Below, piece after piece: positions 2,665 to 36,297 of a stretch of 40,656 bases of DNA. The stretch's first letter is position 1. Each line of letters opens with the position of its first letter. The translations under genes and the position numbers were made by a program. The stretch comes from Przondovirus NAN33P1. Where the stretch lies: sequence record OZ035777.1; one strand, 5' to 3'. The notes beneath the pieces were generated by a model. That model did no database searches. It saw only the letters and a program-made list of their open reading frames with translations, and was not told where the DNA came from.

Positions 2665-2687
2665 AATTAGGTAGCACTATAGGGAGA
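2665..2687 (+). promoter_or_regulatory. phage RNAP promoter (phi-OR-like, after gene 19)
   Basis: AATTAGGTAGCACTATAGGGAGA, exact match to the 23-bp consensus shared by 13 sites in this window; predicted +1 is G at 2682. Position matches T7 phi-OR. Confidence 0.8.
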
Positions 2688-2827
2688 GACCCAAGGTTAC
2701 ATACTATAAGACTACTTAAAGTTTCATTCATATAGATATGCACTTTAAGTCTCCTCTATGAGAGAGGGTAGTGATGATAATATCACCCTCTAACTATAAG
2801 ACACTAGAGCCAACATAAGGAGGACCT

Positions 2828-2977
2828 ATGCGCTTACTGTTAACCTTACTGCGCCATAGGACTACTTGGCGATTTCTGCTGGTACTTGCTGGTGCCCTTG
2901 GGGCTTCACTGGTTACTCAGCAGCAACTCAGTGGACTGGAGACTCTCGTGTGCTCTCTACTCACTTGTAGCGATTAG
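2828..2977 (+). CDS. gene 19.5-like small protein
   Basis: 49-aa ORF not in the supplied track (<60 aa): MRLLLTLLRHRTTWRFLLVLAGALGASLVTQQQLSGLETLVCSLLTCSD. ATG 2828 with SD TAAGGAGG (2816-2823), stop TAG 2975-2977. Last gene before the genome end, as T7 gene 19.5. Confidence 0.6.
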   Translation: MRLLLTLLRHRTTWRFLLVLAGALGASLVTQQQLSGLETLVCSLLTCSD

Positions 2978-3161
2978 GGTCTTCCTGACGCGCTAGGGAT
3001 TCCGTAGTGATGCTTATCAGCATACACCACTCCATCCCTCTACAGTCAATACTTAAAGTTAACCTTAGGTGATTCATTGGGTCCACCTACGGGTCTATGC
3101 AATGACCTGAGGACTACCTGAGGTTACCTTTAAGAATATGACATAAAGTTCTGAGCGTACA

Positions 3162-3342
3162 TCTCATAGTTTACACTTTTGGTTATCCCCCCCGGTACCC
3201 TCTCAGTCCACCCAAAGTAACCATAGGCCACCCTAAACCTTCGGTTTAACCTTAGGTGGGACTGATGGGAAACCTTTGGTGATACTATATGTTGTGGTGA
3301 GTGGGACCTTGGGATACTATATGTTGATGTCTCTGTGTCCCT
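3162..3342 (+). repeat. predicted terminal repeat region (single collapsed copy) with the physical left genome end near 3162
   Basis: 3162 begins TCTCATAGTTTACAC (T7 left end is TCTCACAGTGTACGG); a C7 run, ACCTTCGGTT, and ...TGTCTCTGTGTCCCT|ATCTGTT at 3329-3348 parallel the T7 terminal repeat and its right boundary as recalled from memory. Boundaries are approximate. Confidence 0.4.
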
Positions 3343-3471
3343 ATCTGTTGGTACTCATTAAGTCACACCTGAGGTAACTACCTGAGGTAATACCGGAGAC
3401 CATATACCTTAGGTTAACCGATGGTACATTAGGTTGAGACTCTTAGATAGTGGTTATCCAGTCATTTACAC

Positions 3472-3494
3472 AATTAGGTATCACTATAGGGAGA
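3472..3494 (+). promoter_or_regulatory. phage RNAP promoter (phi-OL-like, left end)
   Basis: AATTAGGTATCACTATAGGGAGA, one mismatch to consensus (G to T at -8); +1 G at 3489. Lies just upstream of the host-type early promoters, as phi-OL does in T7. Confidence 0.65.
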
Positions 3495-3571
3495 CACTCT
3501 GAGTATTACTAAGAGACCATCACCATAAAGACAACCATCACTATAGGTCTACTTAAAGTTAACTTAGAGTA

Positions 3572-3600
3572 TTGACATTAAGAATACACTGTGAGACTAT
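3572..3600 (+). promoter_or_regulatory. host sigma70-type early promoter (T7 A1 homolog)
   Basis: -35 TTGACA 3572-3577, 17-bp spacer, -10 GACTAT 3595-3600. Upstream AGAGTATTGAC is identical to the T7 A1 promoter upstream region as recalled. Confidence 0.6.
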
Positions 3601-3704
3601 AGCAACCGTTGAGAGACACAACGCTACCAACCACTAGCATACTTCGAGTTACTAGATGGATGCTGAAGGGTCTCAAGTAGCTATCAACCGGCATACGAAA
3701 GTGG

Positions 3705-3733
3705 TTGACTCAACGATGAACAAGTAGTAAGAT
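3705..3733 (+). promoter_or_regulatory. host sigma70-type early promoter (A2/A3-like)
   Basis: -35 TTGACT 3705-3710, 17-bp spacer, -10 TAAGAT 3728-3733; about 175 bp upstream of the first early gene. Confidence 0.5.
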
Positions 3734-3907
3734 GCACCACAGATTCACGAAGTATCGCTCTTTTACAATATGGATTAGCTGACATGTACATCACTCATCA
3801 CTTAGTGTTTAACTAGTGGTTACATTCAGGTCTCTGGCAAGGTACGTCCTGTCACCCTGAGAGTAGCCACACTGATAACCACTAATGTAACATTGAGGAT
3901 ATACACC

Positions 3908-4375
3908 ATGATTCACACGAAAGAACCAGCCAACAAAGTATTTGTATTCGTTACCGCTTACCGTGGGTACGAGTCACTCGAAGTTAACGAGAAGGTACTC
4001 AAGGGCCTCATTCGCACCATTAAGACCTATCCGGGAGCGTATGGCAACATTCGTGATGAGAACGTACAAGGATGCTTTAAGGAGGCTGGTATACCTGAGG
4101 CAACGCAAGAGCGCACGCTTAAGGTGGAATGTACCGTCAAACAAGCGGCTGAGCTGTCATGGTTAGCATGTAAGACCTACCATCAAGACGCTGTACTGGT
4201 GGTTAACTCACAGACTCACACGGCCTCTCTGTGGTCTATCGAGGACAAGGGCGAATACCCAATGGTATACCCATGCTTGAAAGAGGTGTCTTTGGGTGGC
4301 ACGCTGCAACAGGTTGATGCACCTAAGGGTGAATGCTATTCGGTAATCGACGGGCAATACTGGGAGGTGGTGTAA
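3908..4375 (+). CDS. S-adenosylmethionine lyase (T3 gene 0.3 SAMase homolog, anti-restriction)
   Basis: 155 aa from ATG 3908 (SD GAGGA 3895-3899). MIHTKEPANKVFVFVTAYRG...SQTHTASLW... is collinear with the T3 SAMase as recalled (MIFTKEPANVFYVLVSAFRS...SQTHTAGLV). First early gene. Confidence 0.8.
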   Translation: MIHTKEPANKVFVFVTAYRGYESLEVNEKVLKGLIRTIKTYPGAYGNIRDENVQGCFKEAGIPEATQERTLKVECTVKQAAELSWLACKTYHQDAVLVVNSQTHTASLWSIEDKGEYPMVYPCLKEVSLGGTLQQVDAPKGECYSVIDGQYWEVV

Positions 4376-4575
4376 TGAGTAAGCTACTAGCGATATCCAA
4401 AATAACAGGGCAATACACTGTAACACTACGGGAGTACCCGCACGGTAAAATGGGGAGTACCTACACTGTGCGATACGGTAAGCAGGTAAAACACTGGGAC
4501 AACGTGGTACTAGCTCAGGAGGATTATCAATCGTGCGTAGTACATCAATCAACTTGCGCTGGGTGGAATTACTGA
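4375..4575 (+). CDS. hypothetical early protein (66 aa)
   Basis: ATG 4375 overlaps the SAMase stop (TAATG), SD GGAGG 4362-4366. MSKLLAISKITGQYTVTLREYPHGK... No homolog recognised. Confidence 0.5.
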   Translation: MSKLLAISKITGQYTVTLREYPHGKMGSTYTVRYGKQVKHWDNVVLAQEDYQSCVVHQSTCAGWNY

Positions 4576-4757
4576 TGAAACACTACGGAATCACACAGCA
4601 GGATCTCAAGATCACTCGCAAGGCCATGAAGGTGGCCCTGATGTATGTCAACCAGTCACCTGAAGACATGAACGCATGGCACGGCTACTATATGGCCCAG
4701 CTGGCAGCAATTTATCATACTCGTAAGGTAATGTATGATAACCCTGTTCGTAATTAG
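4575..4757 (+). CDS. hypothetical early protein (60 aa)
   Basis: ATG 4575 overlaps the upstream stop (TGATG), translationally coupled. MKHYGITQQDLKITRKAMKVALMYVNQSPEDMNAWHGYYM... Confidence 0.5.
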   Translation: MKHYGITQQDLKITRKAMKVALMYVNQSPEDMNAWHGYYMAQLAAIYHTRKVMYDNPVRN

Positions 4758-4932
4758 TGTGTACGCCCTGATTGTCCTGTACTTTGTGCGGGACTTTCGC
4801 AAGGGTCTTAATGTACACAAAGCATCATTCAGTTACCTGAAGTGGGGCGTGCTGCCTCGCTTTACTGTAAGACTACCTAATGGCCGCTTTAAGGCAAACA
4901 AAGTGGGGATATTCTATGTCGCAACGCACTAA
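4735..4932 (+). CDS. hypothetical early membrane protein (65 aa)
   Basis: ATG 4735 overlaps the previous gene; N-terminal hydrophobic helix (ITLFVISVYALIVLYFV) then a basic tail. Confidence 0.5.
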   Translation: MITLFVISVYALIVLYFVRDFRKGLNVHKASFSYLKWGVLPRFTVRLPNGRFKANKVGIFYVATH

Positions 4933-5149
4933 CCTGAAGAAAGCATTCAAGATTGCACGGATGGTTATGACCTACGGTGCATCCGAACGCGCCACAAAGA
5001 AAGCATACATCAGGCACCACATACGACTACCAGCAAGACAGCAGCGATGGGTAATACGTAGCGTGCACATTCAACTACACGAGCCATTCATGGTCCCTAA
5101 GGACCTCGTTCCATCAGCAACTGGTTTTGCAAAGCGCCAAGAGTTTTAG
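4916..5149 (+). CDS. hypothetical basic early protein (77 aa)
   Basis: ATG 4916 (GGGGA 6 nt upstream); an alternative in-frame ATG exists at 4880. Lys/Arg-rich: MSQRTNLKKAFKIARMVMTYGASERATKKAYIRHHIRLPARQQRW... Confidence 0.45.
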   Translation: MSQRTNLKKAFKIARMVMTYGASERATKKAYIRHHIRLPARQQRWVIRSVHIQLHEPFMVPKDLVPSATGFAKRQEF

Positions 5150-5192
5150 CACTCGTTAACACCACACACTACTATTTAAAGGAAACAACTAA

Positions 5193-6212
5193 ATGAACTA
5201 CACCGACATGCAAGAACGCTTAGACGTCATCCGTAACCTACCAATCTGTGAACTCGACAAGCGCCAACCGCTATTGGTTGCACTCATCGCGGACATTGTG
5301 AACTACGAGACGTCTGACGGTGACGATACAGCTAGCAGCTGTGGTCTGGAAAGTCAGTACTACTGGCAAACACTGAAGATTAAGGCCAAAGACGCCGGGT
5401 TTAACCTGCTGGGTAATGGTCACTTCAGCGCAGCGTTTAAGCACGAGCTACTACCGGGTAGGGTCATCAAGGTTGGCTTTAAGAAAGAAGACTCTGGGGC
5501 CGCTTACGTAGCATTCTGCCGGATGCATCAAGGTCGTGACGGTATTCCTAACGTCTATCACGTAGCGCGTCACGCTGGGTGCTACACGGTGGTACTAGAT
5601 GAGTTGTTACCGTGTCAACGCTACGAGGATGATGACCACGACCATTATGCAGACTTAGCGTTTCAATTCGTTGAGTGCACAGGCTACGACCATGAGGATT
5701 ACCGCAAGGATGACCAGCCGTTCATCGAAACGTGCCAGATGATTCGCAAGTTCTTCTACGGGATTGCGTCCTTTGATATGCATAGTGGTAACATCATGTT
5801 CACCAAAGACGGCAAGCCAGTGATTACCGACCCGGTGTCATTCTCGCATGACCGCGAACGTGAGTCGTTCTCACTGGAACCTGAGGAACTGCTCGCAGAG
5901 ATTGAGCAGATAGCGCACGATAAGATGATTGAACGCTGCAAGCGCAACAAGGCTAAGCGTGACCCGAACGGGGAGCTGCGCATCGCACGCCGTAAGGCCA
6001 ATAAGGAACGTCGGGCTGCCAACAAGGCACACGCTAGGTGGCGCAAGGAGCGCGAACGTGAACGTGAGCAGTATCACGTAGAAGCCTTAAAGGCAGACAT
6101 AGCGAGCATTGAAGCGCGCGTTCCGGTGTGGTGCAGGGGACCGGGCCTAGCGATACAAATGGGCAAGCCACTACCAATCGACAACTACCTTCAGGCTAGA
6201 CTTATGGGTTAA
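5193..6212 (+). CDS. serine/threonine protein kinase, host shutoff (T7 gene 0.7 homolog)
   Basis: 339 aa; LPICELDKRQ...AGFNLLGNGHFSAAF...RVIKVGFKKEDSGAAY(V/T)AFCRM.QGR.GIPNVY.V.RHAGCYTVVLD...IRKFF.GIASFDMHSGNIMF...ITDPVSFS is collinear with T7 gp0.7, followed by a basic Arg/Lys-rich C-terminal region. Confidence 0.92.
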   Translation: MNYTDMQERLDVIRNLPICELDKRQPLLVALIADIVNYETSDGDDTASSCGLESQYYWQTLKIKAKDAGFNLLGNGHFSAAFKHELLPGRVIKVGFKKEDSGAAYVAFCRMHQGRDGIPNVYHVARHAGCYTVVLDELLPCQRYEDDDHDHYADLAFQFVECTGYDHEDYRKDDQPFIETCQMIRKFFYGIASFDMHSGNIMFTKDGKPVITDPVSFSHDRERESFSLEPEELLAEIEQIAHDKMIERCKRNKAKRDPNGELRIARRKANKERRAANKAHARWRKEREREREQYHVEALKADIASIEARVPVWCRGPGLAIQMGKPLPIDNYLQARLMG

Positions 6213-6281
6213 CGAGGTGTATCTTAGGTGTCTCCACTGCGAGGCACCAATAGATAAACTTTATTCACAAAGAGGCACACA

Positions 6282-9002
6282 ATGAACGCATTAAACATTG
6301 CACGTAATGACTTCTCAGAGATTGAACTGGCCGCTATTCCGTACAACATCCTCAGCGAGCACTACGGGGACAAACTGGCACGTGAGCAGTTAGCACTCGA
6401 ACATGAAGCGTACGAGCTGGGCGAGCAGCGTTTCCTGAAGATGCTGGAACGTCAGGTTAAAGCTGGTGAGTTCGCTGACAACGTGGCCGCTAAGCCGCTG
6501 GTCTTAACGTTGCACCCACAGTTAACCAAGCGTATTGACGACTGGAAGGAGGAGCAAGCAAACGCTCGCGGTAAGAAGCCTCGCGCATACTATCCGATTA
6601 AGCACGGTGTGGCCTCAGAGTTAGCCATTAGCATGGGCGCTGAGGTGCTCAACGAGAAGCGCGGAGTGTCCAGTGAGGCAATCGCACTGCTAACCATTAA
6701 GGTAGTCTTAGGGACGCTCACAGACGCCTCAAAGGCCACCATCCAGCAGGTATCCTCTCAGTTAGGTAAGGCCCTTGAGGATGAGGCCCGCTTCGGTCGT
6801 ATTCGTGAGCAGGAAGCCACCTACTTCAAGAAGAACGTAGCGGACCAGCTGGACAAGCGCGTAGGCCACGTGTACAAGAAGGCTTTCATGCAGGTTGTCG
6901 AGGCCGATATGATTTCCAAAGGGATGCTGGGTGGTGACAACTGGGCGAGCTGGAAGACCGACGAGCAGATGCACGTGGGGACCAAGCTGCTAGAGTTACT
7001 CATTGAGGGCACTGGTCTGGTGGAAATGACCAAGAACAAGATGGCCGATGGCTCCGACGATGTGACCAGTATGCAGATGGTCCAGCTGGCTCCGGCCTTT
7101 GTGGAACTCCTGAGCAAACGAGCAGGCGCACTCGCAGGTATCAGCCCGATGTACCAGCCGTGCGTAGTCCCTCCGAAACCTTGGGTTGGAACTGTGGGTG
7201 GAGGCTACTGGTCAGTCGGTCGTCGCCCGCTGGCACTGGTGCGTACCCACTCCAAGAAGGCACTGCGCCGCTATGAAGACGTGCACATGCCTGAGGTGTA
7301 CAAAGCAGTCAATCTCGCGCAAAACACGCCGTGGAAGGTGAACAAGAAGGTGCTGGCGGTAGTCAACGAGATTGTCAACTGGAAGCACTGCCCGGTGGGT
7401 GACGTCCCGGCGATTGAGCGCGAAGAATTACCACCACGCCCGGACGATATCGATACCAACGAGGTGGCACGCAAGGCTTGGCGCAAGGAGGCCGCAGCGG
7501 TCTACCGTAAGGACAAGGCACGACAGTCTCGCCGTTTGTCAATGGAGTTCATGGTTGCACAGGCCAACAAATTCGCTAACCATAAGGCCATCTGGTTCCC
7601 ATACAACATGGACTGGCGTGGACGTGTGTACGCTGTTAGCATGTTCAACCCGCAGGGTAACGACATGACTAAGGGTATGCTGACACTGGCCAAGGGCAAA
7701 CCGATTGGTCTCGATGGGTTCTACTGGCTGAAGATTCACGGTGCAAACTGTGCAGGCGTCGATAAGGTTCCTTTCCCTGAGCGCATCAAGTTCATCGAAG
7801 AGAACGAGGGCAACATTCTGGCGAGCGCAGCCGACCCACTGAATAACACTTGGTGGACCCAGCAGGATTCGCCGTTCTGTTTCCTAGCGTTCTGCTTTGA
7901 GTATGCAGGCGTTAAACATCACGGCCTGAATTACAACTGCTCGCTGCCGCTGGCGTTCGATGGGTCATGCTCTGGGATTCAGCACTTCAGCGCAATGCTC
8001 CGCGATTCCATCGGTGGCCGTGCGGTAAACCTGCTGCCATCTGATACCGTGCAGGATATCTACAAGATTGTGGCCGATAAGGTCAACGAGGTGCTCCACC
8101 AGCACGTTGTCAACGGGTCTCAGACGGTGGTCGAGCAGATTGCAGACAAGAAGACTGGGGAGTTCCGCGAGAAGGTAACACTGGGTGAGTCCGTGCTGGC
8201 TGCTCAGTGGTTGCAATATGGTGTTACCCGTAAGGTGACTAAGCGTTCGGTCATGACGCTGGCGTACGGTTCCAAAGAGTTTGGCTTCCGCCAGCAAGTT
8301 CTTGAGGACACCATTCAGCCAGCTATTGATAACGGCGAGGGCTTGATGTTTACGCACCCTAACCAAGCGGCTGGCTATATGGCTAAGCTGATTTGGGACG
8401 CTGTTACCGTGACCGTAGTGGCCGCTGTCGAGGCTATGAACTGGCTGAAGTCTGCTGCTAAACTGCTGGCCGCTGAAGTCAAGGACAAGAAGACCAAAGC
8501 GGTGCTCCGTAAGCGCTGCGCAATCCACTGGGTAACACCAGACGGCTTCCCGGTGTGGCAGGAATATCACAAGCGCGACCAAGCGCGCCTGAAGCTGACG
8601 TTTCTAGGTCAGGCCAACGTGTTCATGACGTACAACAAAGGGGAAGCCAAAGAGATTGACGCACATAAGCAGGAGTCAGGAATCGCTCCTAACTTTGTGC
8701 ACTCACAGGATGGTAGTCACCTGCGCATGACCGTAGTGCACGCCAACGAGGTCTACGGGATTGACTCCTTCGCGCTCATTCACGACTCCTTCGGGACCAT
8801 TCCGGCAGATGCTGGGAATCTATTTAAGGCAGTCCGTGAGACGATGGTAAAGACCTACGAGGATAACGATGTGATTGCAGACTTCTATGACCAGTTCGCT
8901 GACCAGCTGCACGAGTCTCAGCTCGATAAGATGCCTGAGGTACCAGCCAAAGGGGACCTGAATCTGCGCGATATCTTAGAGTCTGACTTTGCGTTCGCGT
9001 GA
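6282..9002 (+). CDS. single-subunit DNA-directed RNA polymerase (T7 gene 1 homolog)
   Basis: 906 aa (the size I recall for K11 RNAP; T7 is 883). Collinear with T7 RNAP throughout, including the C-terminus ...IHDSFGTIPADA.NLFKAVRETMV.TYE..DV.ADFYDQFADQLHESQLDKMP..PAKG.LNLRDILESDFAFA. Confidence 0.98.
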   Translation: MNALNIARNDFSEIELAAIPYNILSEHYGDKLAREQLALEHEAYELGEQRFLKMLERQVKAGEFADNVAAKPLVLTLHPQLTKRIDDWKEEQANARGKKPRAYYPIKHGVASELAISMGAEVLNEKRGVSSEAIALLTIKVVLGTLTDASKATIQQVSSQLGKALEDEARFGRIREQEATYFKKNVADQLDKRVGHVYKKAFMQVVEADMISKGMLGGDNWASWKTDEQMHVGTKLLELLIEGTGLVEMTKNKMADGSDDVTSMQMVQLAPAFVELLSKRAGALAGISPMYQPCVVPPKPWVGTVGGGYWSVGRRPLALVRTHSKKALRRYEDVHMPEVYKAVNLAQNTPWKVNKKVLAVVNEIVNWKHCPVGDVPAIEREELPPRPDDIDTNEVARKAWRKEAAAVYRKDKARQSRRLSMEFMVAQANKFANHKAIWFPYNMDWRGRVYAVSMFNPQGNDMTKGMLTLAKGKPIGLDGFYWLKIHGANCAGVDKVPFPERIKFIEENEGNILASAADPLNNTWWTQQDSPFCFLAFCFEYAGVKHHGLNYNCSLPLAFDGSCSGIQHFSAMLRDSIGGRAVNLLPSDTVQDIYKIVADKVNEVLHQHVVNGSQTVVEQIADKKTGEFREKVTLGESVLAAQWLQYGVTRKVTKRSVMTLAYGSKEFGFRQQVLEDTIQPAIDNGEGLMFTHPNQAAGYMAKLIWDAVTVTVVAAVEAMNWLKSAAKLLAAEVKDKKTKAVLRKRCAIHWVTPDGFPVWQEYHKRDQARLKLTFLGQANVFMTYNKGEAKEIDAHKQESGIAPNFVHSQDGSHLRMTVVHANEVYGIDSFALIHDSFGTIPADAGNLFKAVRETMVKTYEDNDVIADFYDQFADQLHESQLDKMPEVPAKGDLNLRDILESDFAFA

Positions 9003-9012
9003 GGTCTCCGGT

Positions 9013-9035
9013 AATTAGGTAGCACTATAGGGACC
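9013..9035 (+). promoter_or_regulatory. phage RNAP promoter (immediately after gene 1)
   Basis: AATTAGGTAGCACTATAGGGACC; -17 to +4 match consensus; +1 G at 9030. Drives the 9093-9656 gene. Confidence 0.75.
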
Positions 9036-9092
9036 TGCTCTCTGGGTCCATATACTTAAAGACAACTTAAAGTAAACTTAAAGAGGCACGCT

Positions 9093-9656
9093 ATGACTTA
9101 CTCAATCGTTGTAACCATCTTGTTAATCGTTGTAACCATCCTGTTCATCCGGTCTGTACTGCACGCAAACGACCTACAGAGCACTCTTAGCTCAAAGATG
9201 GAAATGCACAAACAGGCCATAGAGTCAGCTGTCACCAAGGTACGTCGGGCAGAAGAGGACAGAGAATCATACTCCCGAAGGTTACAGCACATTGAGGACC
9301 TACTGTATGCTGAGAAAGACAGGGTGACGACTCTAAGTGGGCACATCACAACCCAGCGTGACCGAATGAAGCATCTCCGTAAGAACAACGATGAGTTACT
9401 GAACGAGCTGATGCTGGTCTCCGACCTGATTCACGTTAAGTTCACCGCTGTGTTGCCTGACGGTACCCACTCTAAGACGCTCTTTAAGTTAGGACTTGGG
9501 CCGTGTGGTCTGCACGTTAAGTCCCTCCGCTGGACCGAGCTTGAAGACCGCTATCTGATAGACCAGCTGTGCACCAATGGCGAGCGTAAGCAGTTCGTCT
9601 ACTACAAGAGCGAAGTAGTAGGACGCATCGAGTTCCGCCACGGTAAGTCTGAATAA
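9093..9656 (+). CDS. hypothetical membrane-anchored coiled-coil protein (no T7 counterpart recognised)
   Basis: 187 aa, ATG 9093 with SD AAGAGG (9081-9086). N-terminal TM helix encoded by a 2x21-nt tandem repeat (9104-9145, IVVTILL/IVVTILF), a heptad-rich charged central region, and a C-terminal domain with Cys residues. Lies between RNAP and gene 1.1. Confidence 0.7.
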   Translation: MTYSIVVTILLIVVTILFIRSVLHANDLQSTLSSKMEMHKQAIESAVTKVRRAEEDRESYSRRLQHIEDLLYAEKDRVTTLSGHITTQRDRMKHLRKNNDELLNELMLVSDLIHVKFTAVLPDGTHSKTLFKLGLGPCGLHVKSLRWTELEDRYLIDQLCTNGERKQFVYYKSEVVGRIEFRHGKSE

Positions 9657-9674
9657 GGTAGCACTATAGGAACA
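9652..9674 (+). promoter_or_regulatory. degenerate phage RNAP promoter (phi-1.1-like)
   Basis: AATAAGGTAGCACTATAGGAACA; core GGTAGCACTATAGG intact, three mismatches at -14, +3 and +5. Overlaps the stop codon of the upstream gene and directly precedes an R1.1-like hairpin, as phi-1.1A does in T7. Confidence 0.5.
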
Positions 9675-9675
9675 T

Positions 9676-9707
9676 ACTCAAGGTCATCATCTGGTGGCCT
9701 TTATGAA
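9676..9707 (+). promoter_or_regulatory. RNase III processing hairpin (T7 R1.1-like)
   Basis: ACTCAAGGTCATCATCTGGTGGCCTTTATGAATG; near-identical ends to the T7 R1.1 site (ACUCAAGGUCAU...GUGGCCUUUAUGAUUG as recalled). Stem 9680-9689 pairs with 9692-9701. Confidence 0.7.
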
Positions 9708-9737
9708 TGTCCCTAACAACCACTCAGGAGCAACACT

Positions 9738-9917: not shown

Positions 9918-10175
9918 ATGGCTAAGCAAACTAAATGGCTGTTCGATGGAAGCACTTCGCAGTGGTCTCGTTTAGGAGCAGCGGAGCGCAGACTGATGGA
10001 TACGACAGGACTACACGTGGTCATGCTTGACGACCCGTTCACTAACACCGTGGTATTCAACGTGTTTGAGCCACGCGGGTCGCTTCTAATAAGCAAGCGG
10101 TTCAGCCGCTGGTCAATTGACTCAGCGTCAGACTGGCTGGCAAAACTCATGGTAGACTACTCAAGTTGGAAATGA
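9918..10175 (+). CDS. gene 1.2-like protein (candidate host dGTPase inhibitor)
   Basis: 85 aa, the same length and position as T7 gp1.2; SD AGGAG 9905-9909. Sequence similarity to T7 gp1.2 was not established by eye; assignment is by synteny and size. Confidence 0.5.
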   Translation: MAKQTKWLFDGSTSQWSRLGAAERRLMDTTGLHVVMLDDPFTNTVVFNVFEPRGSLLISKRFSRWSIDSASDWLAKLMVDYSSWK

Positions 10176-10196
10176 TTAGGTAGCACTATAGGCAGA
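10174..10196 (+). promoter_or_regulatory. phage RNAP promoter (phi-1.3-like)
   Basis: GATTAGGTAGCACTATAGGCAGA; mismatches at -17 and +3; +1 G at 10191. Precedes the ligase gene. Confidence 0.65.
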
Positions 10197-10280: not shown

Positions 10281-11342
10281 ATGATGAACATTAAGACTAA
10301 TCCATTTAAGGCCGTATCGTTCGTTCGCTCTGCTATCGAGAAGGCGTTGGAGACTTCCGGTTACCTCATCGCAGACACTAAGCACGATGGTGTGCGCGGG
10401 AACATCTGCGTAGACAACACGGCCAACACAGCGTGGCTCAGTCGGGTCTCCAAGACCATTCCGGCCCTTGAGCATCTCAACGGTTTCGACCAGCGCTGGC
10501 AGAAGTTACTGAAAGATGACCGCTGGATTTTCCCGGACGGCTTTATGCTTGATGGTGAACTAATGGTCAAAGGCGTGGACTTTAACACCGGGTCTGGCCT
10601 ACTGCGCACCAAGTGGCTGAAAGCTAAGAACTATGAGTTCTCAACATACGCCATTGAGAAAGAGTGGGATAACCCTAAGGGTAAAGTACCATTCCACCTC
10701 AATAGTGCCGACCTCAAAGTTGTTCTGTACGATATCATTCCGCTTGACATTATCGAGTCCGGCGATGACTACGAAGTGATGACACTGCTGCGCCTTGAGC
10801 ACGTCAAGGTAGCCTTACCAGTCCTGCAAGACCACTTCCCTGAAGTTGAGTGGTGCCTCTCGGAGTCCCATGAAGTTTACGACATGGACGAACTCGATGC
10901 GCTGTACCGACAGAAACGTGAAGAAGGTCATGAAGGTCTAGTGGTTAAGGACCCTCGCGGTATCTATAAGCGCGGTAAGAAGTCCGGCTGGTGGAAACTG
11001 AAGCCAGAGAATGAGGCTGACGGCGTCGTTGTGGGACTCAACTGGGGAACTCCCGGTCTTGCCAACGAGGGAAAGGTGATTGGCTTCGAGGTTCTCCTTG
11101 AGTCTGGTCGAGTGGTATCCGCCAACAACATCTCTCAGGCACTTATGGAAGAATTCACCAAGCGCGTTAAAGAGTACACCACTGAGTGTAACGCCAACGA
11201 AGCTGGGTGTTGGTACATGAATCCTTACGAGGGCTGGGCTTGTCAAATCAAGTACATGGAGGAAACTCCAGACGGCTCCCTGCGTCACCCGTCGTTCGAC
11301 AAATGGCGCGGAACAGAGGAAGACCCTACCGTTAAGATGTAA
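10281..11342 (+). CDS. ATP-dependent DNA ligase (T7 gene 1.3 homolog)
   Basis: 353 aa from ATG 10281 (MMNIKTNPFKAVSFV..., SD GGAGA 10269-10273). Collinear with T7 ligase, including the adenylation-site lysine context (IADTKHDGVRG) and ...EGHEGLVVKDP...YKRGKKSGWWK(L/M)KPE. The track start at 10248 lacks an SD. Confidence 0.95.
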   Translation: MMNIKTNPFKAVSFVRSAIEKALETSGYLIADTKHDGVRGNICVDNTANTAWLSRVSKTIPALEHLNGFDQRWQKLLKDDRWIFPDGFMLDGELMVKGVDFNTGSGLLRTKWLKAKNYEFSTYAIEKEWDNPKGKVPFHLNSADLKVVLYDIIPLDIIESGDDYEVMTLLRLEHVKVALPVLQDHFPEVEWCLSESHEVYDMDELDALYRQKREEGHEGLVVKDPRGIYKRGKKSGWWKLKPENEADGVVVGLNWGTPGLANEGKVIGFEVLLESGRVVSANNISQALMEEFTKRVKEYTTECNANEAGCWYMNPYEGWACQIKYMEETPDGSLRHPSFDKWRGTEEDPTVKM

Positions 11343-11363
11343 TTAGGTAGCACTATAGGAGAC
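11341..11363 (+). promoter_or_regulatory. phage RNAP promoter
   Basis: AATTAGGTAGCACTATAGGAGAC; -17 to -1 match consensus exactly, initiating region is GGAGA (one G short). Overlaps the ligase stop codon. Confidence 0.7.
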
Positions 11364-12427: not shown

Positions 12428-12450
12428 CATTAGGTAGCACTATAGGGACA
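12428..12450 (+). promoter_or_regulatory. phage RNAP promoter (phi-2.5-like)
   Basis: CATTAGGTAGCACTATAGGGACA; mismatch at -17; +1 G at 12445. The transcript 5-prime end can fold GGGACA/TGTCCC (12445-12461). Confidence 0.7.
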
Positions 12451-14096: not shown

Positions 14097-16008
<1,912 letters not shown>

Positions 16009-20971: not shown

Positions 20972-20994
20972 AATTAGGTAGCACTATAGGGAAG
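20972..20994 (+). promoter_or_regulatory. phage RNAP promoter (phi-6.5-like) embedded in an inverted repeat
   Basis: AATTAGGTAGCACTATAGGGAAG; +1 G at 20989. Flanked by a perfect 9-bp inverted repeat ATGGGCACT / AGTGCCCAT (20963-20971 and 20993-21001) with R1.1-family flanks (ACTCA upstream, TTATGATTAT downstream). Confidence 0.7.
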
Positions 20995-21796: not shown

Positions 21797-23404
21797 ATGG
21801 CAGAAGTTAAACTCGAAGGCTTCGCAGAGGAGGGAGCCAAGGCGGTATACGACCGTCTGAAGAACGACCGACAACCTTATGAGACACGAGCAGAGTCCTG
21901 CGCTCAGTACACGATTCCCTCACTGTTCCCTAAGGACTCCGATAACGCCTCAACCGATTATACGACTCCGTGGCAATCCGTAGGTGCACGTGGACTGAAC
22001 AACCTAGCGTCCAAGCTGATGCTGGCCCTGTTCCCGATGCAGTCATGGATGAAGTTGACCATTAGTGAATACGAAGCGAAGAACCTTCTGGGTGACGCTG
22101 AGGGTCTCGCTAAGGTCGATGAGGGTCTCTCAATGGTAGAGCGCATCATCATGAACTACATCGAGTCCAACAGTTACCGAGTGACTCTCTTTGAGTGCTT
22201 GAAGCAACTGTGTGTGGCCGGGAACGCGCTGCTGTACTTACCGGAGCCTGAGGGTTATACCCCTATGAAGCTCTATCGACTGAACTCGTATGTGGTACAG
22301 CGAGACGCTTTCGGTAACGTACTCCAGATTGTCACCCTAGACAAGATTGCGTTTAACGCTCTCCCTGAGGATGTCCGCAGCCAAGTGGAAGCAGCCCAAG
22401 GTGAGCAGAAGGAAGACGCTGAGATTGACATCTACACCCACGTGTATCTGAACGAAGCCGGGGATGGTTACTCGAAGTACGAAGAGGTTGCCGAAGAGGT
22501 AGTACCGGGCAGCGAAGCTGAGTACCCTCTCGAAGAGTGTCCATACATTCCGGTCCGTATGGTCCGCATCGACGGTGAATCCTACGGACGTTCCTACGTG
22601 GAAGAGTATCTGGGAGACCTAAAGTCCCTAGAGAACCTCCAAGAGTCTATCGTGAAGATGGCAATGATTACCGCCAAGGTTATCGCTCTGGTAGACCCCG
22701 CAGGTATCACTCAGGTCCGCCGACTCACGGCAGCCCAATCTGGCGCGTTCGTACCGGGCCGTAAGCAGGACATTGAGTTCCTCCAATTGGAGAAGTCCGG
22801 TGACTTTACCGTAGCGAAGAACGTAAGCGACACCATTGAGGCTCGCCTCTCGTATGCCTTTATGCTCAACAGTGCGGTACAACGTACAGGCGAGCGAGTC
22901 ACAGCCGAAGAGATTCGGTACGTGGCGTCAGAGCTGGAAGATACCCTTGGCGGTGTCTACTCGATTCTCTCGCAGGAACTCCAGCTGCCTCTGGTAAGAG
23001 TGCTCCTGAAGCAACTACAAGCCACGCAGCAAATCCCGGAGTTACCTAAAGAGGCCGTCGAGCCAACTATCAGCACTGGCCTTGAGGCTATCGGACGCGG
23101 TCAGGACCTTGACAAGCTGGAGCGGTGCATTAACGCATGGTCTGCCCTTAAGGCTCTCGAAGGTGATGATGATCTCAACTTGGCTAACCTCAAGTTGCGA
23201 ATTGCTAACGCTATCGGACTCGACACAGCTGGTATGCTTCTCACTCAGGAAGAGAAGAACGCCCTTATGGCACAGCAAGGTGCTCAGATTGCTACACAGC
23301 AAGGGGCCGCTGCGTTGGGTCAAGGGATGGCCGCTCAGGCTACTGCAAGTCCTGAGGCGATGGCAGCTGCTGCTGATTCCGTAGGTATGCAGCCGGGTAT
23401 GTAA
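21797..23404 (+). CDS. portal (head-to-tail connector) protein (T7 gene 8 homolog)
   Basis: 535 aa, long runs identical to T7 gp8 (…YETRA..CAQYTIPSLFPKDSDNASTDY.TPWQ.VGARGLNNLASKLMLALFPMQ.WM.LTISEYEAK...; C-terminus AAQATASPEAMAAAADSVG.QPG). Confidence 0.98.
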   Translation: MAEVKLEGFAEEGAKAVYDRLKNDRQPYETRAESCAQYTIPSLFPKDSDNASTDYTTPWQSVGARGLNNLASKLMLALFPMQSWMKLTISEYEAKNLLGDAEGLAKVDEGLSMVERIIMNYIESNSYRVTLFECLKQLCVAGNALLYLPEPEGYTPMKLYRLNSYVVQRDAFGNVLQIVTLDKIAFNALPEDVRSQVEAAQGEQKEDAEIDIYTHVYLNEAGDGYSKYEEVAEEVVPGSEAEYPLEECPYIPVRMVRIDGESYGRSYVEEYLGDLKSLENLQESIVKMAMITAKVIALVDPAGITQVRRLTAAQSGAFVPGRKQDIEFLQLEKSGDFTVAKNVSDTIEARLSYAFMLNSAVQRTGERVTAEEIRYVASELEDTLGGVYSILSQELQLPLVRVLLKQLQATQQIPELPKEAVEPTISTGLEAIGRGQDLDKLERCINAWSALKALEGDDDLNLANLKLRIANAIGLDTAGMLLTQEEKNALMAQQGAQIATQQGAAALGQGMAAQATASPEAMAAAADSVGMQPGM

Positions 23405-23425
23405 TTAGGTAGCACTATAGGGAGA
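23403..23425 (+). promoter_or_regulatory. phage RNAP promoter (phi-9-like)
   Basis: AATTAGGTAGCACTATAGGGAGA, exact consensus; +1 G at 23420; overlaps the portal stop codon. Confidence 0.8.
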
Positions 23426-23514: not shown

Positions 23515-24474
23515 ATGGCTGGCGAATCTAACGCAGACGTATACGCATCCTTCGGTGTCAACAGTGCTGTGCTGACTGGTAGTACACCTGAGGAGCATCA
23601 AGAAAACATGTTGGCTCTTGATGTTGCTGCCCGTGATGGCGATGATGCAATCGAGCTGAACACCAACAGTGATGACCCGTATGGCTCCGATGTGGACCCG
23701 TTCGGTGAACCTGAAGAGGGCCGTATGCAGGTCCGCATCTCCGCTGACGGTTCCGACGAAGAGTCTACCGAAGGTGAAGAGGGTTCTGAAGAAGAACAGC
23801 ATGGCGACGAAGGGAGTCAGCCGGAGGAAGTAACCGACGATGGCGAACCAGAAGAGTTCAAACCGATTGGTGAAACTCCGGCTGACATCAACGAAGCCTC
23901 TCAGCAGCTGGAAGAACACGAAGCTGGCTTTAACGACATGGTTGCCACTGCAATCGAACGCGGTCTCTCACAGGATGCTGTGACCCGTATTCAGCAGGAA
24001 TACCAGAACGAAGACAGTTTGTCCGATGAGTCCTACCAAGAGTTGGCCGAGGCTGGCTACAGTAAGGCATTCGTCGATGCATACATTCGTGGTCAGGAAG
24101 CTCTGGTTAACCAGTACGTCGAGAAAGTGATGGACTTCGTTGGTGGCCGCGAGCGCTTCCAGCAGGTCTATGGTCACATGAAGACCAACAACCCTGAGGG
24201 TGCTGAGGCACTCATCAAGGCTTTTGAATCCCGTGACGTAGCCACCATGAAGACGATTCTGAACCTAGCGGGACAGTCTCGTGATAAAACCTTTGGTAAG
24301 AAAGCTGAGCGCTCTATTGCCAAGCGTGCAACCCCAGCGAAACCTGTGGCCCGTAAAGCTGAAGGCTTCGAGTCTCAGGCTGAGATGATTAAAGCTATGT
24401 CCGACCCGCGCTACCGCACCGACTCCAAGTACCGTCGTGAAGTGGAACAGAAGGTCATCGACTCTAAGTTTTAA
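23515..24474 (+). CDS. capsid assembly scaffolding protein (T7 gene 9 homolog)
   Basis: 319 aa from ATG 23515 (SD TAAGGAGA 23502-23509); M.ESNADVYASFGVNSAV..G...EEH..NMLALDVAARDGDDAIEL... and C-terminus ...EMIKAMSDPRYRTD..YRR.VEQKVIDS.F are collinear with T7 gp9; acidic central region. Confidence 0.95.
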   Translation: MAGESNADVYASFGVNSAVLTGSTPEEHQENMLALDVAARDGDDAIELNTNSDDPYGSDVDPFGEPEEGRMQVRISADGSDEESTEGEEGSEEEQHGDEGSQPEEVTDDGEPEEFKPIGETPADINEASQQLEEHEAGFNDMVATAIERGLSQDAVTRIQQEYQNEDSLSDESYQELAEAGYSKAFVDAYIRGQEALVNQYVEKVMDFVGGRERFQQVYGHMKTNNPEGAEALIKAFESRDVATMKTILNLAGQSRDKTFGKKAERSIAKRATPAKPVARKAEGFESQAEMIKAMSDPRYRTDSKYRREVEQKVIDSKF

Positions 24475-24495
24475 TTAGGTAGCACTATAGGGAGA
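24473..24495 (+). promoter_or_regulatory. phage RNAP promoter (phi-10-like, major capsid)
   Basis: AATTAGGTAGCACTATAGGGAGA, exact consensus; +1 G at 24490. The transcript begins with an interrupted 12-bp hairpin (GGGAGA/TCTCCC plus CCCAGC/GCTGGG, 24490-24528). Confidence 0.8.
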
Positions 24496-25918: not shown

Positions 25919-25930
25919 AACTAAGCCAAA

Positions 25931-25968
25931 CCCCTTGGGGACCACTCACGGTCTCTGAGGGGTTTTTT
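25931..25968 (+). terminator. T-phi-like terminator for phage RNAP (also intrinsic-terminator-like)
   Basis: AACCCCTTGGGG...CTCTGAGGGGTTTTTT: 12-bp stem (25931-25942 pairs with 25951-25962, three G-U pairs) followed by T6 (25963-25968). Resembles T7 T-phi (...AACCCCTTGGGGCCTCTAAACGGGTCTTGAGGGGTTTTTTG) at the same map position after gene 10. Confidence 0.8.
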
Positions 25969-28962: not shown

Positions 28963-28988
28963 CTAAATGTCTCCCTGTGGTGTTGCTC

Positions 28989-29011
28989 AATTAGGTAGCA
29001 CTATAGGGAGA
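28989..29011 (+). promoter_or_regulatory. phage RNAP promoter (phi-13-like)
   Basis: AATTAGGTAGCACTATAGGGAGA, exact consensus; +1 G at 29006; 30-nt leader to gene 13. Confidence 0.8.
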
Positions 29012-29446: not shown

Positions 29447-29448
29447 CT

Positions 29449-32294: not shown

Positions 32295-32310
32295 ACAATA
32301 AGGAGACAAC

Positions 32311-35300
32311 ATGAGCTACGACAAGTCCAAACCTAGTGACTACGACGGTATGTTCCAGAAGGCAGCAGACGCACACGGTGTTAGTTACGACCTACTGCGT
32401 AAACTGTCCTTCAACGAATCATCCTTCAACCCTAAGGCCGTCTCTAAGACTGGCCCTAAAGGCATCATGCAGTTCACCAAAGCGACGGCCCGGAGCATGG
32501 GCCTTAACGTGACCGATGGTGACGACGATGGGCGCTACAACCCTGAGTTAGCCATTGACGCTGGCGCTAAGCTGCTTGCCAGTCTCGTTAAGAAGTACGA
32601 CGGTGATGAGCTGAAAGCGGCCCTAGCGTACAACCAAGGGGAAGGCCCAGCGGGTGCCCCTCAGCTCCAAGCGTACGACAAGGGAGACTTCAGGTCTATC
32701 TCGGAGGAGGGGCGTAACTACATGCGCAAGCTGCTGGATGTGGCCAAGAGTCCGAACTCAGGCGCACTGGAGGCGTTCGGTGGTATCACCCCAAAGGGTA
32801 AAGGGATTCCCGCAGAGGATGCCTTCAAGGGCATTGCTAAGACTGGTAAGGTAGGTACTGCGCTGCCGGAGTCCCATGGGTTCGACGTAGAGGGTGTAGC
32901 GCAGGAAGCGCCCAACACGCCATACGCTAAGGACTTCTGGGAGAAGACCGGGACGACTCTCGACGAGTATAACGCTCGGTCTACCTTCTTCGGCTTCGGT
33001 GATGCTGCTGAGGCTCAACTTCAGAACTCAACCTTGGGTGTGGCCTTCCGTGCTGCGCGTGCTGATGATGGGTACGATGTGTTCAAGGACACGATGACCC
33101 CGACTCGCTGGAACTCTTACGTCCCGTCCAAGGAGGACTTACAGAAGCTGCGGGACTCCGGGTTACCTCCCAGTTACTACGGTGTGGTGACAGGTGGTGA
33201 CGGTGAGAACTGGGACGCCCTCATTAAGCTGGCCAAGGATAACTTTGCTGCTGACCAAAGGGCCGCCGAGGCTGGTACTGGTGCGAAACTTGCAGCTGGT
33301 GTTGTAGGCGCTGGTGTGGACCCATTGAGCTATGTCCCCTTGGTGGGTGTGACCGGGAAGGGTATCAAGGTAGTCAATAAGGCTCTCCGTGTTGGAGCTC
33401 AGGCTGGTGCACTCAACGTTGCCTCTGAAGGAATCCGTACGTCTATCGCTGGTGGTGAAGCTCACTATGCTGATGCGGCGCTCGGTGGTCTACTGTTCGG
33501 CTCCGGTATGTCAGTCCTCAGTGACGCTGTGGCTGCTGGTATCCGTAAGACACGTGGTGTTGAATCAGTGAACGAGTTCGCTGGTCCGGCACTTCGTATG
33601 GAAGCCAGAGAGACTGCTATCAACACTGGTGGCCATGATACCTCCACGCTACCTCCTGAGAACTTCTCGTTTGAGCAGAACCATGGGGGTGTTCCGTTTG
33701 CCGACCATCCTACCGAAGAGGGCGCAGTGGTTCTGGCCAATGGTTCAATCCTGAGTGACACCAACCCGCTTAACCCAAGGACTCAGCGGGACTTCGCGGA
33801 GATTGACCCAGAGCGTGCAGCTCCCGGTATCAAACTCGGTGGGTTCACTGAGATTGGCCTGAAGACATTAGGGTCCAAGGATGCTGGTGTACGTGCAATC
33901 GCTCAGGACCTCGTACGCTCTCCCACAGGGATGCAATCAGGGTCTAGCGGTAAGTTTGGTGCGACCGCTTCGGACATCCATGAGCGGCTCCATGCGACTG
34001 ACCAGCGGATGTACAACCAACTGTATGACGCTGTTGACCGTGCCATGAAGGACCCAGAGTTCTCCATTGGTGAGCAGAAGATGTCACGCAGAGCCATCCG
34101 TCAGGAAGTCTACAAGCGTGCAGCCTTGGCGATTGAGCGTCCAGAGTTACAGGCTGATTTGACCAAAGGTGAACGTGAGGTGATGGACCTACTGAAAGAG
34201 CACTTCGACACCAAGCGTGAGCTGATGGAACAGCCGGGTATTTTCGGTAACGCTAACGCCGTGAGCATCTTCCCCGGTAGTCGCCATAAGGGAACCTACA
34301 TACCTAACGTGTACGATAGGGGTGCTAAGGAGCTGATGACTCAGAAACTAGGCGGACCTGAAGGACTCCAACAGGCTATCGCCCAGAGCTGGCTCACCAG
34401 TTACCGAGTGCGTCCTGAGGTTAAGGCACGTGTCGATGAGTACCTCATGGAACTCAACGGCTACAAGTCGGTTGACCAAGTGACACCTGAGGTGGTCCAG
34501 AAGCACGCCATGGACAAGGCTTACGGTATCAGCCACACTGAGGACTTCACGGCATCAAGTGTCATTGACGACAACATCACTGGTCTGGTCGGTATTGAGA
34601 ACAACTCGTTCCTTGAAGCCCGTAATATGTTCGACAGCGACATCCCGGTTACCTTACCGGACGGGTCAACCTTCAGTGTCAACGACCTGAGGGACTTCGA
34701 CATGGCACGGATTATCCCAGCGTACGACCGTCGAGTTAACGGTGATATCGCCATCATGGGCGGTAGCGGTAAGACCACGAAGCAGCTCAAGGACGAAATC
34801 ATGGCGTTAGACAAACGGGCCGAACGTAAGGGACAGCTTAAGGGTGAAGTGGAAGCACTGAAGGATACCGTTAAGATTCTCACTGGCCGTGCTCGCCGCA
34901 ACAATGACACAGCCTTTGAGACGGCTATGCGCTCCTTGAATGACCTAGCGTTCTTCGCTAAGAACTTCTACATGGGTCCGCAGAACCTCACAGAGATTGC
35001 TGGGATGTTGGCTAAAGGTAACGTTAAGGCGATGCTGCATGGTATCCCAACGTTGCGTGACCTCGCCACCAGAACCTCTCCGGTTTCCGGTAGTGAACTC
35101 CGTGAACTCCATGGGGCGCTGTTCGGTAAGGAACTAGACCAGCTAATACGACCGGGGCGTGAGGACATCGTGCAGCGAATCCGTGAGGCTTCCGATACCA
35201 GCGGGGCCATGGCGTCAGTCATTGGTACCATTAAGTTCGGTACTCAGGAGCTGTCGGCTCGTTCTCCTTGGACCAAGATGCTGAACGGTACGGCCAACTA

Positions 35301-36276
35301 CATTCTGGACACTGCCCGTCAGGGTGTGCTCGGGGATGTGGCTGGTGCTGCCCTCGGCGGTAAGGGTTCCAAGTTCGGTAAGGAGAACTTCCTCAAAGCT
35401 GCCTCTATCAGTCCAGAGCAGTGGAAGGGCATCAAGCAACTCTTTGTTGACCATGCGACTCGTGATGCCAACGGACAGTTCACCATCAAGGACAAGAAGG
35501 CGTTCAGTCAAGACCCGAGAGCGATGGACCTGTGGCGTCTTGCCGATAAGGTTGCTGATGAGACCATGCTGAGGCCTCACAAGGTATCCCAGCAGGATTC
35601 CAAGGCGTATGGTGCTGGTGTCAAGATGGCTATGCAGTTCAAGAACTTCACCATCAAGTCACTCAACGCTAAGTTCATTCGGTCCTTCTACGAGGGCTAC
35701 AAGAACAACCGTGCCATCGACATGGCCCTGACCCACGTGTTGTCTATGGGTATCGCTGGGACTTACTTTGCGATGCAGGCCCATGTGAAGGCTTACGGAC
35801 TCCAAGAGGCTCAACGTAAGGACTACCTGAAGAAAGCTCTTAACCCGACTATGCTGGGCTACGCAGCGTTGACTCGAAGTTCCCACACTGGTGCCCCGCT
35901 GTCTATCGTTTCGATGATGGCTGGTGCCGCTGGATTCCAAGACGCCAACATGCTGCGCTCCACCATCTTACCTAAGGAGGAACAGTTCCAGAAGAAAGAT
36001 GGAGCGTCCAAAGGTCGAGCCGAGTCGAGCAACCTTGCGGGTAACTTAGGGTCTCAGGTCCCAGCGCTGGGTTACGTAGGGAACGTCATTGCGACCGCTA
36101 AGAACGCTTATGGTGTTGCTACAGCGCCTAACAAGCCGACTGAGCGTGACTACATGACTGGCCTGATGAACTCCACCAAGGAGCTTGTACCTAACGACCC
36201 GCTCACCCAGCAGCTCATAATGAAAATCTATGAGGCAAACGGTGTGACCATCAAGCAACAGCCTAAACCTAACTAA
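32311..36276 (+). CDS. internal virion protein D with N-terminal lytic transglycosylase domain (T7 gene 16 homolog)
   Basis: 1321 aa (T7 gp16 is 1318 aa); N-terminal SLT-like domain (...SDYDG.FQKAADA.GVSYDLLRK...ES.F.P.A.SKTGP.G.MQFTKATA...LAYNQGEG) and extensive collinearity to the C-terminus (...MTGLMNSTKELVPNDPLTQQL..KIYEANGV). Confidence 0.96.
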   Translation: MSYDKSKPSDYDGMFQKAADAHGVSYDLLRKLSFNESSFNPKAVSKTGPKGIMQFTKATARSMGLNVTDGDDDGRYNPELAIDAGAKLLASLVKKYDGDELKAALAYNQGEGPAGAPQLQAYDKGDFRSISEEGRNYMRKLLDVAKSPNSGALEAFGGITPKGKGIPAEDAFKGIAKTGKVGTALPESHGFDVEGVAQEAPNTPYAKDFWEKTGTTLDEYNARSTFFGFGDAAEAQLQNSTLGVAFRAARADDGYDVFKDTMTPTRWNSYVPSKEDLQKLRDSGLPPSYYGVVTGGDGENWDALIKLAKDNFAADQRAAEAGTGAKLAAGVVGAGVDPLSYVPLVGVTGKGIKVVNKALRVGAQAGALNVASEGIRTSIAGGEAHYADAALGGLLFGSGMSVLSDAVAAGIRKTRGVESVNEFAGPALRMEARETAINTGGHDTSTLPPENFSFEQNHGGVPFADHPTEEGAVVLANGSILSDTNPLNPRTQRDFAEIDPERAAPGIKLGGFTEIGLKTLGSKDAGVRAIAQDLVRSPTGMQSGSSGKFGATASDIHERLHATDQRMYNQLYDAVDRAMKDPEFSIGEQKMSRRAIRQEVYKRAALAIERPELQADLTKGEREVMDLLKEHFDTKRELMEQPGIFGNANAVSIFPGSRHKGTYIPNVYDRGAKELMTQKLGGPEGLQQAIAQSWLTSYRVRPEVKARVDEYLMELNGYKSVDQVTPEVVQKHAMDKAYGISHTEDFTASSVIDDNITGLVGIENNSFLEARNMFDSDIPVTLPDGSTFSVNDLRDFDMARIIPAYDRRVNGDIAIMGGSGKTTKQLKDEIMALDKRAERKGQLKGEVEALKDTVKILTGRARRNNDTAFETAMRSLNDLAFFAKNFYMGPQNLTEIAGMLAKGNVKAMLHGIPTLRDLATRTSPVSGSELRELHGALFGKELDQLIRPGREDIVQRIREASDTSGAMASVIGTIKFGTQELSARSPWTKMLNGTANYILDTARQGVLGDVAGAALGGKGSKFGKENFLKAASISPEQWKGIKQLFVDHATRDANGQFTIKDKKAFSQDPRAMDLWRLADKVADETMLRPHKVSQQDSKAYGAGVKMAMQFKNFTIKSLNAKFIRSFYEGYKNNRAIDMALTHVLSMGIAGTYFAMQAHVKAYGLQEAQRKDYLKKALNPTMLGYAALTRSSHTGAPLSIVSMMAGAAGFQDANMLRSTILPKEEQFQKKDGASKGRAESSNLAGNLGSQVPALGYVGNVIATAKNAYGVATAPNKPTERDYMTGLMNSTKELVPNDPLTQQLIMKIYEANGVTIKQQPKPN

Positions 36277-36297
36277 TTAGGTAGCACTATAGGGAGA
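36275..36297 (+). promoter_or_regulatory. phage RNAP promoter (phi-17-like)
   Basis: AATTAGGTAGCACTATAGGGAGA, exact consensus; +1 G at 36292; overlaps the gene 16 stop. The transcript starts with an 8-bp hairpin GGGAGACC/GGTTTCCC (36292-36311). Confidence 0.8.

Follow-up and report, generated by a model that had tools for sequence, protein, structure and literature searches.

The closest described relatives of the transcription system considered here are those of phages K11 and KP32, whose promoters read AATTAGG[G/A]C[A/C]CACTATAGGGAGA; the promoters of KP32 have been validated by green fluorescent protein (GFP) reporter, in vitro transcription, and start-site mapping (PMC13580328), and the KP32 promoter is listed in a review table as ATTAGGGCACACTATAG (PMC11617373). 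The genome of Przondovirus NAN33P1 (sequence record OZ035777.1; 40,656 nucleotides, referred to below as the window) encodes a single-subunit T7-like RNA polymerase (RNAP) and carries 13 copies of a 23-bp motif with the consensus AATTAGGTAGCACTATAGGGAGA. NAN33P1 has in common with K11 and KP32 the genus, an RNAP of 906 amino acids with the same 20-residue N-terminal insertion, and 13 promoters at the same map positions; its promoters differ in having TAG at -10 to -8, a triplet never found in those of K11 or KP32, and in being nearly uniform there, whereas the K11 set is heterogeneous. The two kinds of system were named F type (NAN33P1) and K type (K11 and KP32) after the residue equivalent to position 758 of T7 RNAP. 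It is likely that the 13 sites are the class II and class III promoters of the phage's own RNAP, and that the F-type pair is one of two co-adapted RNAP/promoter types, each preferring its own promoters.

Among better known systems, T7 and T3 likewise have closely related polymerases, and their promoters are distinguished by a short block that the specificity loop reads; a few loop residues switch specificity between them, for example N748D for -10/-11 (PMC11617373). T7 and T3 are, however, separate lineages diverged genome-wide with discriminating positions at -12 to -10, whereas the F and K types appear to belong to one recombining gene pool, are otherwise undiverged, and would discriminate at -10 to -8, above all at -9 and -8. 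The SP6 promoter, ATTTAGGTGACACTATAG (PMC11617373), resembles the F type in its GGT at -12 to -10 and its CACTATAG core, but it has GA rather than AG at -9/-8, a different sequence at -17 to -13, an initiation region reading GAAGAG rather than GGGAGA, and a distantly related RNAP; the same review names -9 and -8 as the positions that chiefly set SP6 promoters apart from those of T7 (PMC11617373). Orthogonal T7 RNAPs were reportedly engineered by Temme et al. in 2012 (cited in PMC13580328) through specificity-loop swaps, in which the loop is exchanged together with the -12 to -8 block to give a new polymerase/promoter pair; the F-type pair differs in being natural and, on our reading, maintained by selection in phage populations.

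Promoter family and specificity loop

All 13 motif sites lie on the + strand, and a scan of the whole genome found none on the - strand. A search with the consensus allowing up to three mismatches returned 12 of them, every one on the + strand, and gave no match in 100 dinucleotide shuffles; the thirteenth, at 11341, is absent from that search because its full -17 to +2 part is followed by GGAGAC, with one G fewer. A position weight matrix (PWM) built from the 13 sites scored these same sites, its own training set and hence a circular measure, at 32-42 bits. The next best position on either strand reached 9.4 bits and the maximum over 50 shuffles was 15.1, so that the family has exactly 13 members, with no further or weaker site above the shuffle range on either strand. 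An earlier, sequence-only reading of the window had listed 13 sites and proposed such a scan; the motif is present at every position that it gave, and its description of exact or near-exact copies holds for seven sites and fails for 11341, which is not near-exact downstream of +2.

The family shows the features of T7-group (Studiervirinae) promoters: an element of about 23 bp (-17 to +6) that opens with AT-rich sequence, has CACTATA as its core, and ends in the GGGAGA start region, placed on one strand at gene junctions according to the promoter map of the group, with a cognate single-subunit RNAP in the same genome. The 13 sites correspond one-to-one, often with identical flanks, to the 13 phage-RNAP promoters annotated in K11 (NC_011043), namely phiOL, 1.05, 1.1, 1.3, 1.6, 2.5, one after gene 3.5, 6.5, 9, 10, 13, 17, and phiOR. 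The K11 consensus given in the sequence-only reading was right, since promoters in the K11 genome read AATTAGG[G/A]C[A/C]CACTATAGG.

Between NAN33P1 and K11 promoters, 39 of 39 bases differ at -10 to -8, compared with 8 of 260 at the other 20 positions. The triplet in NAN33P1 is TAG at 12 sites and TAT at phiOL; the [G/A]C[A/C] of the K11/KP32 class (GGGCAC or GGACAC before ACTATAG) occurs at none of the 13, although AATTA at -17 to -13, GG at -12/-11, and the melting and initiation regions are alike. The -12 to -8 block GGTAG is also distinct from those of T7 (CGACT), T3 (ACCCT), and SP6 (GGTGA), as had been stated; with respect to K11, the differing block is narrower than the proposed -12 to -8, comprising -10 to -8 (TAG versus [G/A/T]C[A/C]), and GG at -12/-11 is common to both. 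Identity of the consensus with that of K11 or KP32, named beforehand as one outcome that would overturn the idea of a distinct specificity, can be ruled out, both being of the other type.

The RNAP gene (gene 1) occupies positions 6282..9002 on the + strand, encodes 906 amino acids as predicted, and matches T7 RNAP (1cez) over its full length (E = 0). Its nucleotide identity is 97% to PMBT12 and about 94% to K11-like records. Compared with K11 RNAP, the encoded protein has 22 differing residues out of 906 (~97.6% amino acid identity), nine of them within the specificity loop. With the T7 numbering verified against PDB chain 1cez_A, the changes from K11 to NAN33P1 are R740H, Q742R, N743D, V750T, K758F, T763K, K765E, D766A, and S767K, which correspond to H763, R765, D766, T773, F781, K786, E788, A789, and K790 in the window numbering. 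The loop segment (8568..8675, + strand) covers window residues 763-790, equivalent to T7 740-767, and reads HKRDQARLKLTFLGQANVFMTYNKGEAK in the F type and RKQNQARLKLVFLGQANVKMTYNTGKDS in the K type. The alignment of this loop, which the sequence-only reading had suggested as a check, thus shows nine residues that differ from K11 and co-vary with the promoter block.

In structures of T7 RNAP with its promoter, loop residues 746, 748, 756, and 758 make base-specific contacts at -7 to -11. R746 and the promoter C at -7 are conserved in NAN33P1, residue 748 is Lys and -12/-11 is GG in both types, and residue 758 is Gln in T7, Lys in K11, and Phe in NAN33P1 (window residue 781). The region of the AT-rich recognition loop is identical in the F and K types, consistent with the AATTA common to both promoter types.

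Loop type and promoter type in related phages

A tblastn search with the 64-residue loop region against 50,697 phage records yielded 234 records with at least 95% identity (F type), none at 90-95%, and 149 at 80-90% (K11/KP32 type). About 50 relatives were then compared, using loci from IMG/VR centred on the RNAP gene together with late-region loci of the same contigs. Around the RNAP gene, 158 of 159 promoter-like sites in 25 K-type loci had GG[G/A/T]C[A/C] and one had GGTAG; in 29 F-type loci, 232 of 238 sites had GGTAG, GGTAT, or AGTAG, two were K-like, and four were unrelated look-alikes. The late region was uniform, with GGTAG at 105/105 sites in 23 F-type genomes and GG[G/A/T]C[A/C] at 110/110 sites in 23 K-type genomes. 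Overall, loop type predicted promoter type with three mismatches in about 600 sites, and position -9 was an invariant C in the K type and an invariant A in the F type. T7-like and T3-like loci in the census had CGACT and ACCCT, respectively, each with its own loop.

The three heterotypic promoters (in loci L026, L009, and L012) all occupy the class II positions phi2.5 or phi3.8; they point to recombination between F and K types and to tolerance at positions of this class. They comprise GGTAG at phi3.8 in a K-type genome and, in two F-type genomes, GGACA at phi2.5 or GGGCA at phi3.8; the distances from the loop start are 5529 nt in L026, 4001 nt in L009, and 5712 nt in L012. Separately, a T3-like promoter look-alike, AATTAACCCACACTATTGGGAAC, was seen in the F-type loci L007 and L008, about 7.7-8.0 kb beyond the loop start, where it precedes an inserted gene. 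One IMG/VR metagenome, 3300045988, contributed 26 loci (between L009 and L084), 13 contigs of each type, and F and K types therefore coexist in the same environment.

Fixed differences between the types

In an alignment of 51 unique RNAP genes (27 F, 24 K; 2,718 nt), nine amino acids, all in the loop, and 17 nucleotides were fixed between the types. The nine residues are those by which NAN33P1 departs from the K11/KP32 loop, and the 17 nucleotides fall within 107 nt (gene positions 2288-2394; window 8569-8675). Net divergence between the types reached 0.15 in the loop segment, compared with 0.001-0.014 over the rest of the gene, and diversity within each type was 0.04-0.09 throughout it. The genome designated L003 has an F-type loop, yet carries K11-like residues at most polymorphic RNAP positions.

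Over ~9.5 kb downstream of gene 1 (46 genomes, 8,997 columns), 13 columns were fixed, of which 11 are at -10 to -8 of phi1.05, 1.1, 1.3, and 1.6; the remaining two mark the upstream edge of phi1.3, at window 10172 and at 10174 (its -17). The phi2.5 and phi3.8 triplets are only near-fixed because of the heterotypic exceptions. In the late region (37 genomes, 15,508 columns), all 14 fixed columns are at -10 to -8 of phi6.5, 9, 10, 13, and 17, with -10 of phi6.5 near-fixed at 0.94. In 500 permutations of the type labels, neither alignment yielded a fixed column; the two alignments contain 5,234 and 5,426 polymorphic columns. Mean pairwise distances were 0.108 and 0.096 within types and 0.109 between them downstream of gene 1, and 0.071 and 0.068 within and 0.075 between in the late region; as the distances within and between types are equal, the F and K groups are not separate clades. 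Across the ~27 kb compared, the two bases at the phi1.3 edge are the only fixed differences that belong to neither the loop nor a promoter triplet.

The motif family thus exists, is orthologous to characterised promoters, differs from the K11/KP32 promoters at -10 to -8, and is tightly coupled to the loop allele. Since the loop and the triplets are, apart from the two phi1.3-edge bases, the sole consistent differences between the groups, they are taken to be co-adapted. Judged from these alignments, exchange between the F and K groups appears to extend to the remainder of the genome, yet every triplet stays matched to the loop allele. The presence of C at -9, T763, and K765-D766-S767 in both T7 and the K type suggests that the F type is the derived one.

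Proposed mechanism and alternative explanations

By homology with T7, the RNAP of NAN33P1 would bind duplex DNA from -17 to -5, its AT-rich recognition loop reading AATTA (-17 to -13) and its specificity loop lying in the major groove over about -11 to -7; CACTATA would then melt, and RNA would begin at the G of GGGAGA, as homology with T7, K11, and KP32 indicates. The likeliest discriminators on the promoter side would be -9 (C to A) and -8 (A or C to G or T), and on the protein side the equivalent of T7 Q758, helped by V750T and by changes at the base of the loop (T7 740-743 and 763-767). A Lys at this position in the K type could plausibly bond with the template-strand G at -9, and a Phe in the F type could pack against the template-strand T. 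We infer that the RNAP initiates at the 13 sites and discriminates against promoters of the other type, with -9, -8, and residue 781 as the main determinants. Two transcription types, with NAN33P1 representing F, probably coexist in the K11/KP32-like (Przondovirus) gene pool, each polymerase preferring its own promoter set and working poorly on the other.

Dispersed repeats can also serve as other cis elements, such as recombination or replication signals, and phiOL and phiOR of T7 are associated with replication origins, so that some of the sites may have a second role. That the repeats are such elements instead of promoters is nevertheless very improbable, given their single orientation on the 5' side of gene blocks, their T7-group architecture from -17 to +6, their orthology to promoters annotated in K11 and validated in KP32, and a Tphi-like terminator in the expected place. 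Equally little weight can be given to shared ancestry of two clades, with no functional coupling, as the source of the loop/triplet association. Linked variants are inherited jointly, and a single metagenome supplied part of the sample, but divergence between types equals that within types over 24 kb, the RNAP is nearly undifferentiated outside its loop (net divergence 0.001-0.014), the only fixed bases in ~27 kb that belong neither to a triplet nor to the loop abut phi1.3, and the F-type loop of L003 sits on mostly K11-like polymorphic RNAP residues. On the distance and fixed-difference tests, we rejected clade structure as an explanation for the covariation.

A more serious alternative, though still an unlikely one, is that the sites are ordinary K11-class promoters in which TAG and the loop changes are neutral or nearly so, both polymerases reading both types and no distinct specificity existing. 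It would fit the degeneracy of the K-type set itself at -10 (G/A/T) and -8 (A/C), the persistence of three heterotypic promoters in natural genomes, and the likeness of the promoters outside -10 to -8 (8/260 bases different from K11). Neutral differences, however, would not stay perfectly associated over 40 kb among 5,234 and 5,426 polymorphic columns; all but two of the fixed differences are in the DNA-reading loop or in bases that it should face; and there is no heterotypic site among 215 late promoters, with -9 invariably C in one type and A in the other.

Several points nevertheless weigh against two co-adapted types with separate preferences. The F-type start sites, promoter strength, and discrimination against K11 and KP32 promoters are what we infer for this system. 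K-type promoters have any of three bases at -10 and either of two at -8, and the K-type enzyme, being relaxed at two of the three positions, could therefore partly cross-read F-type promoters. The three natural heterotypic promoters imply that a mismatch at class II positions is tolerated, these promoters being either dispensable or cross-recognised. The assignment of residues to bases rests on the T7 structure, and contacts may differ in K11-like loops, which have no R756. The sampling is also non-independent, as one metagenome supplied 26 of the 54 RNAP-centred loci.

With co-adapted types still preferred, a further proposal, which we favour only slightly over its negation, is that the K11-like phages form one freely recombining gene pool with a stable dimorphism of mutually incompatible transcription systems, kept by selection against mismatched recombinants. 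Selection alone would then tie a nine-residue loop allele to three base pairs at every one of 13 promoters scattered across 40 kb, and the dimorphism is perhaps kept because the transcription of each type stays private in mixed infections.

Promoter map and genome context

Five sites are exact 23-mers, phiOR plus four late-gene promoters: the phiOR equivalent (2665..2687), which lies 3' of the terminase large subunit gene and is orthologous, with conserved flanks, to K11 phiOR at 40503, and the equivalents of phi9 (23403..23425), phi10 (24473..24495, preceding the major capsid gene), phi13 (28989..29011), and phi17 (36275..36297, preceding a tail fibre/spike gene). Exact-consensus late promoters together with phiOR form the same pattern as the T7 class III promoters. 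The deviating sites, mainly in the early and middle region, were identified like the foregoing by motif search and K11 orthology, and all are on the + strand. They are the equivalents of phiOL (3472..3494; T at -8, giving GGTAT), phi1.05 (9013..9035; class II, different only at +5/+6), phi1.1 (9652..9674; A at -14, A at +3, C at +5), phi1.3 (10174..10196; G at -17, C at +3, preceding the DNA ligase gene), and phi2.5 (12428..12450; C at -17, C at +5), the promoter after gene 3.5 (14097..14119; C at -17, C at -2, preceding the primase/helicase gene), the phi6.5 equivalent (20972..20994; different only at +5/+6), and the phi1.6 equivalent (11341..11363), which has GGAGAC after TATA, an initiation region as in K11. 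The GGTAT variant occurs at about one site per relative with an F-type loop.

Positions -17, -14, -8, -2, and +3 to +6 vary among the 13 sites; an earlier list of tolerated positions, -17, -8, -2, and +3, was correct as far as it went and left out -14 and +4 to +6. Every site is at a gene junction, but those at 9652, 10174, 11341, 23403, 24473, and 36275 overlap the last codons of the upstream gene, so that the earlier description of all sites as intergenic is roughly correct; in some of the overlapping sites, the first two A's of the promoter are part of the upstream TAA stop codon.

A Tphi-like stem-loop terminator with a 16-bp stem followed by a T run is located after the capsid gene (25928..25965, + strand), where K11 has an annotated terminator at the same map position, and would be the stop signal expected of the same transcription system. 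A look-alike, AGACAACCATCACTATAGGTCTA, at 3529-3551, 57 nt 3' of phiOL, matches the -7 to +2 promoter core only and is found at the same place in K11, KpV767, and L003, that is, with both RNAP types. Just 5' of phi13, a cluster of near-fixed type-associated differences at 28968-28977 could reflect hitch-hiking or be part of an extended promoter context; a minus-strand PWM match at 28992 (9.4 bits) overlaps the region of this cluster. The few minus-strand matches to CACT.TAGG had no upstream motif part, and scans of the early region for sigma-70 promoters and terminators gave counts equal to those of shuffled sequences.

NAN33P1 is a T7-like Klebsiella phage of the genus Przondovirus (K11/KP32-like); the window holds its complete genome, circularly permuted, and 25 kb of it is 94-95% identical to KpV767 and PMBT12. 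Relative to K11 the sequence is permuted, with the terminase large subunit gene at 827-2584 followed by phiOR at 2665 and phiOL at 3472, an order from which the junction of the terminal repeats is placed between phiOR and phiOL. Two consecutive large open reading frames lie 3' of phi17 (36302-38869, 855 amino acids; 38883-40469, 528 amino acids), matching the arrangement of K11-like phages that carry a pair of tail fibre/spike genes, and they are probably host-range determinants.

Novelty and significance

No promoter feature was annotated at the phi10 region in the 60 best-matching GenBank records; the KpV767 record has annotated promoter features, but elsewhere. Full-text searches of PMC and bioRxiv, which do not extend to subscription journals, figures, or patents, with the promoter sequence, its sub-strings, and its reverse complement returned unrelated primers only. 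A literature keyword search for two promoter types in Przondovirus found none, the KP32 paper and the review giving the K type only. NAN33P1 therefore has a standard T7-group promoter/polymerase system that falls outside the K11/KP32 specificity class by its -9/-8 bases and its loop sequence. The F-type RNAP/promoter pair is probably a distinct, undescribed specificity, though one common to hundreds of sequenced phages. The sequence-only reading had proposed a distinct specificity for this RNAP, and the covariation of loop and promoter supports it; the specificity is not peculiar to NAN33P1, as at least 234 GenBank records share the loop type. F-type promoters are present in hundreds of deposited genomes, and NAN33P1 itself is not unusual.

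The published K11/KP32 consensus consequently misses the promoters in most sequenced Przondovirus genomes, which matters for their annotation. If the two systems are orthogonal, they would constitute a natural minimal specificity switch of nine loop residues against three promoter bases, in a background ~97.6% identical to the K11 and KP32 enzymes already used for RNA synthesis, and if discrimination is strong, the F-type pair would add to the orthogonal polymerases and promoters available for gene circuits and for in vitro transcription. The more interesting aspect is the dimorphism inside one recombining gene pool. How a polymerase and a dozen dispersed promoters change specificity jointly becomes a testable question here, as the F and K states coexist and appear to recombine around the sites under selection, with heterotypic intermediates left as rare traces.

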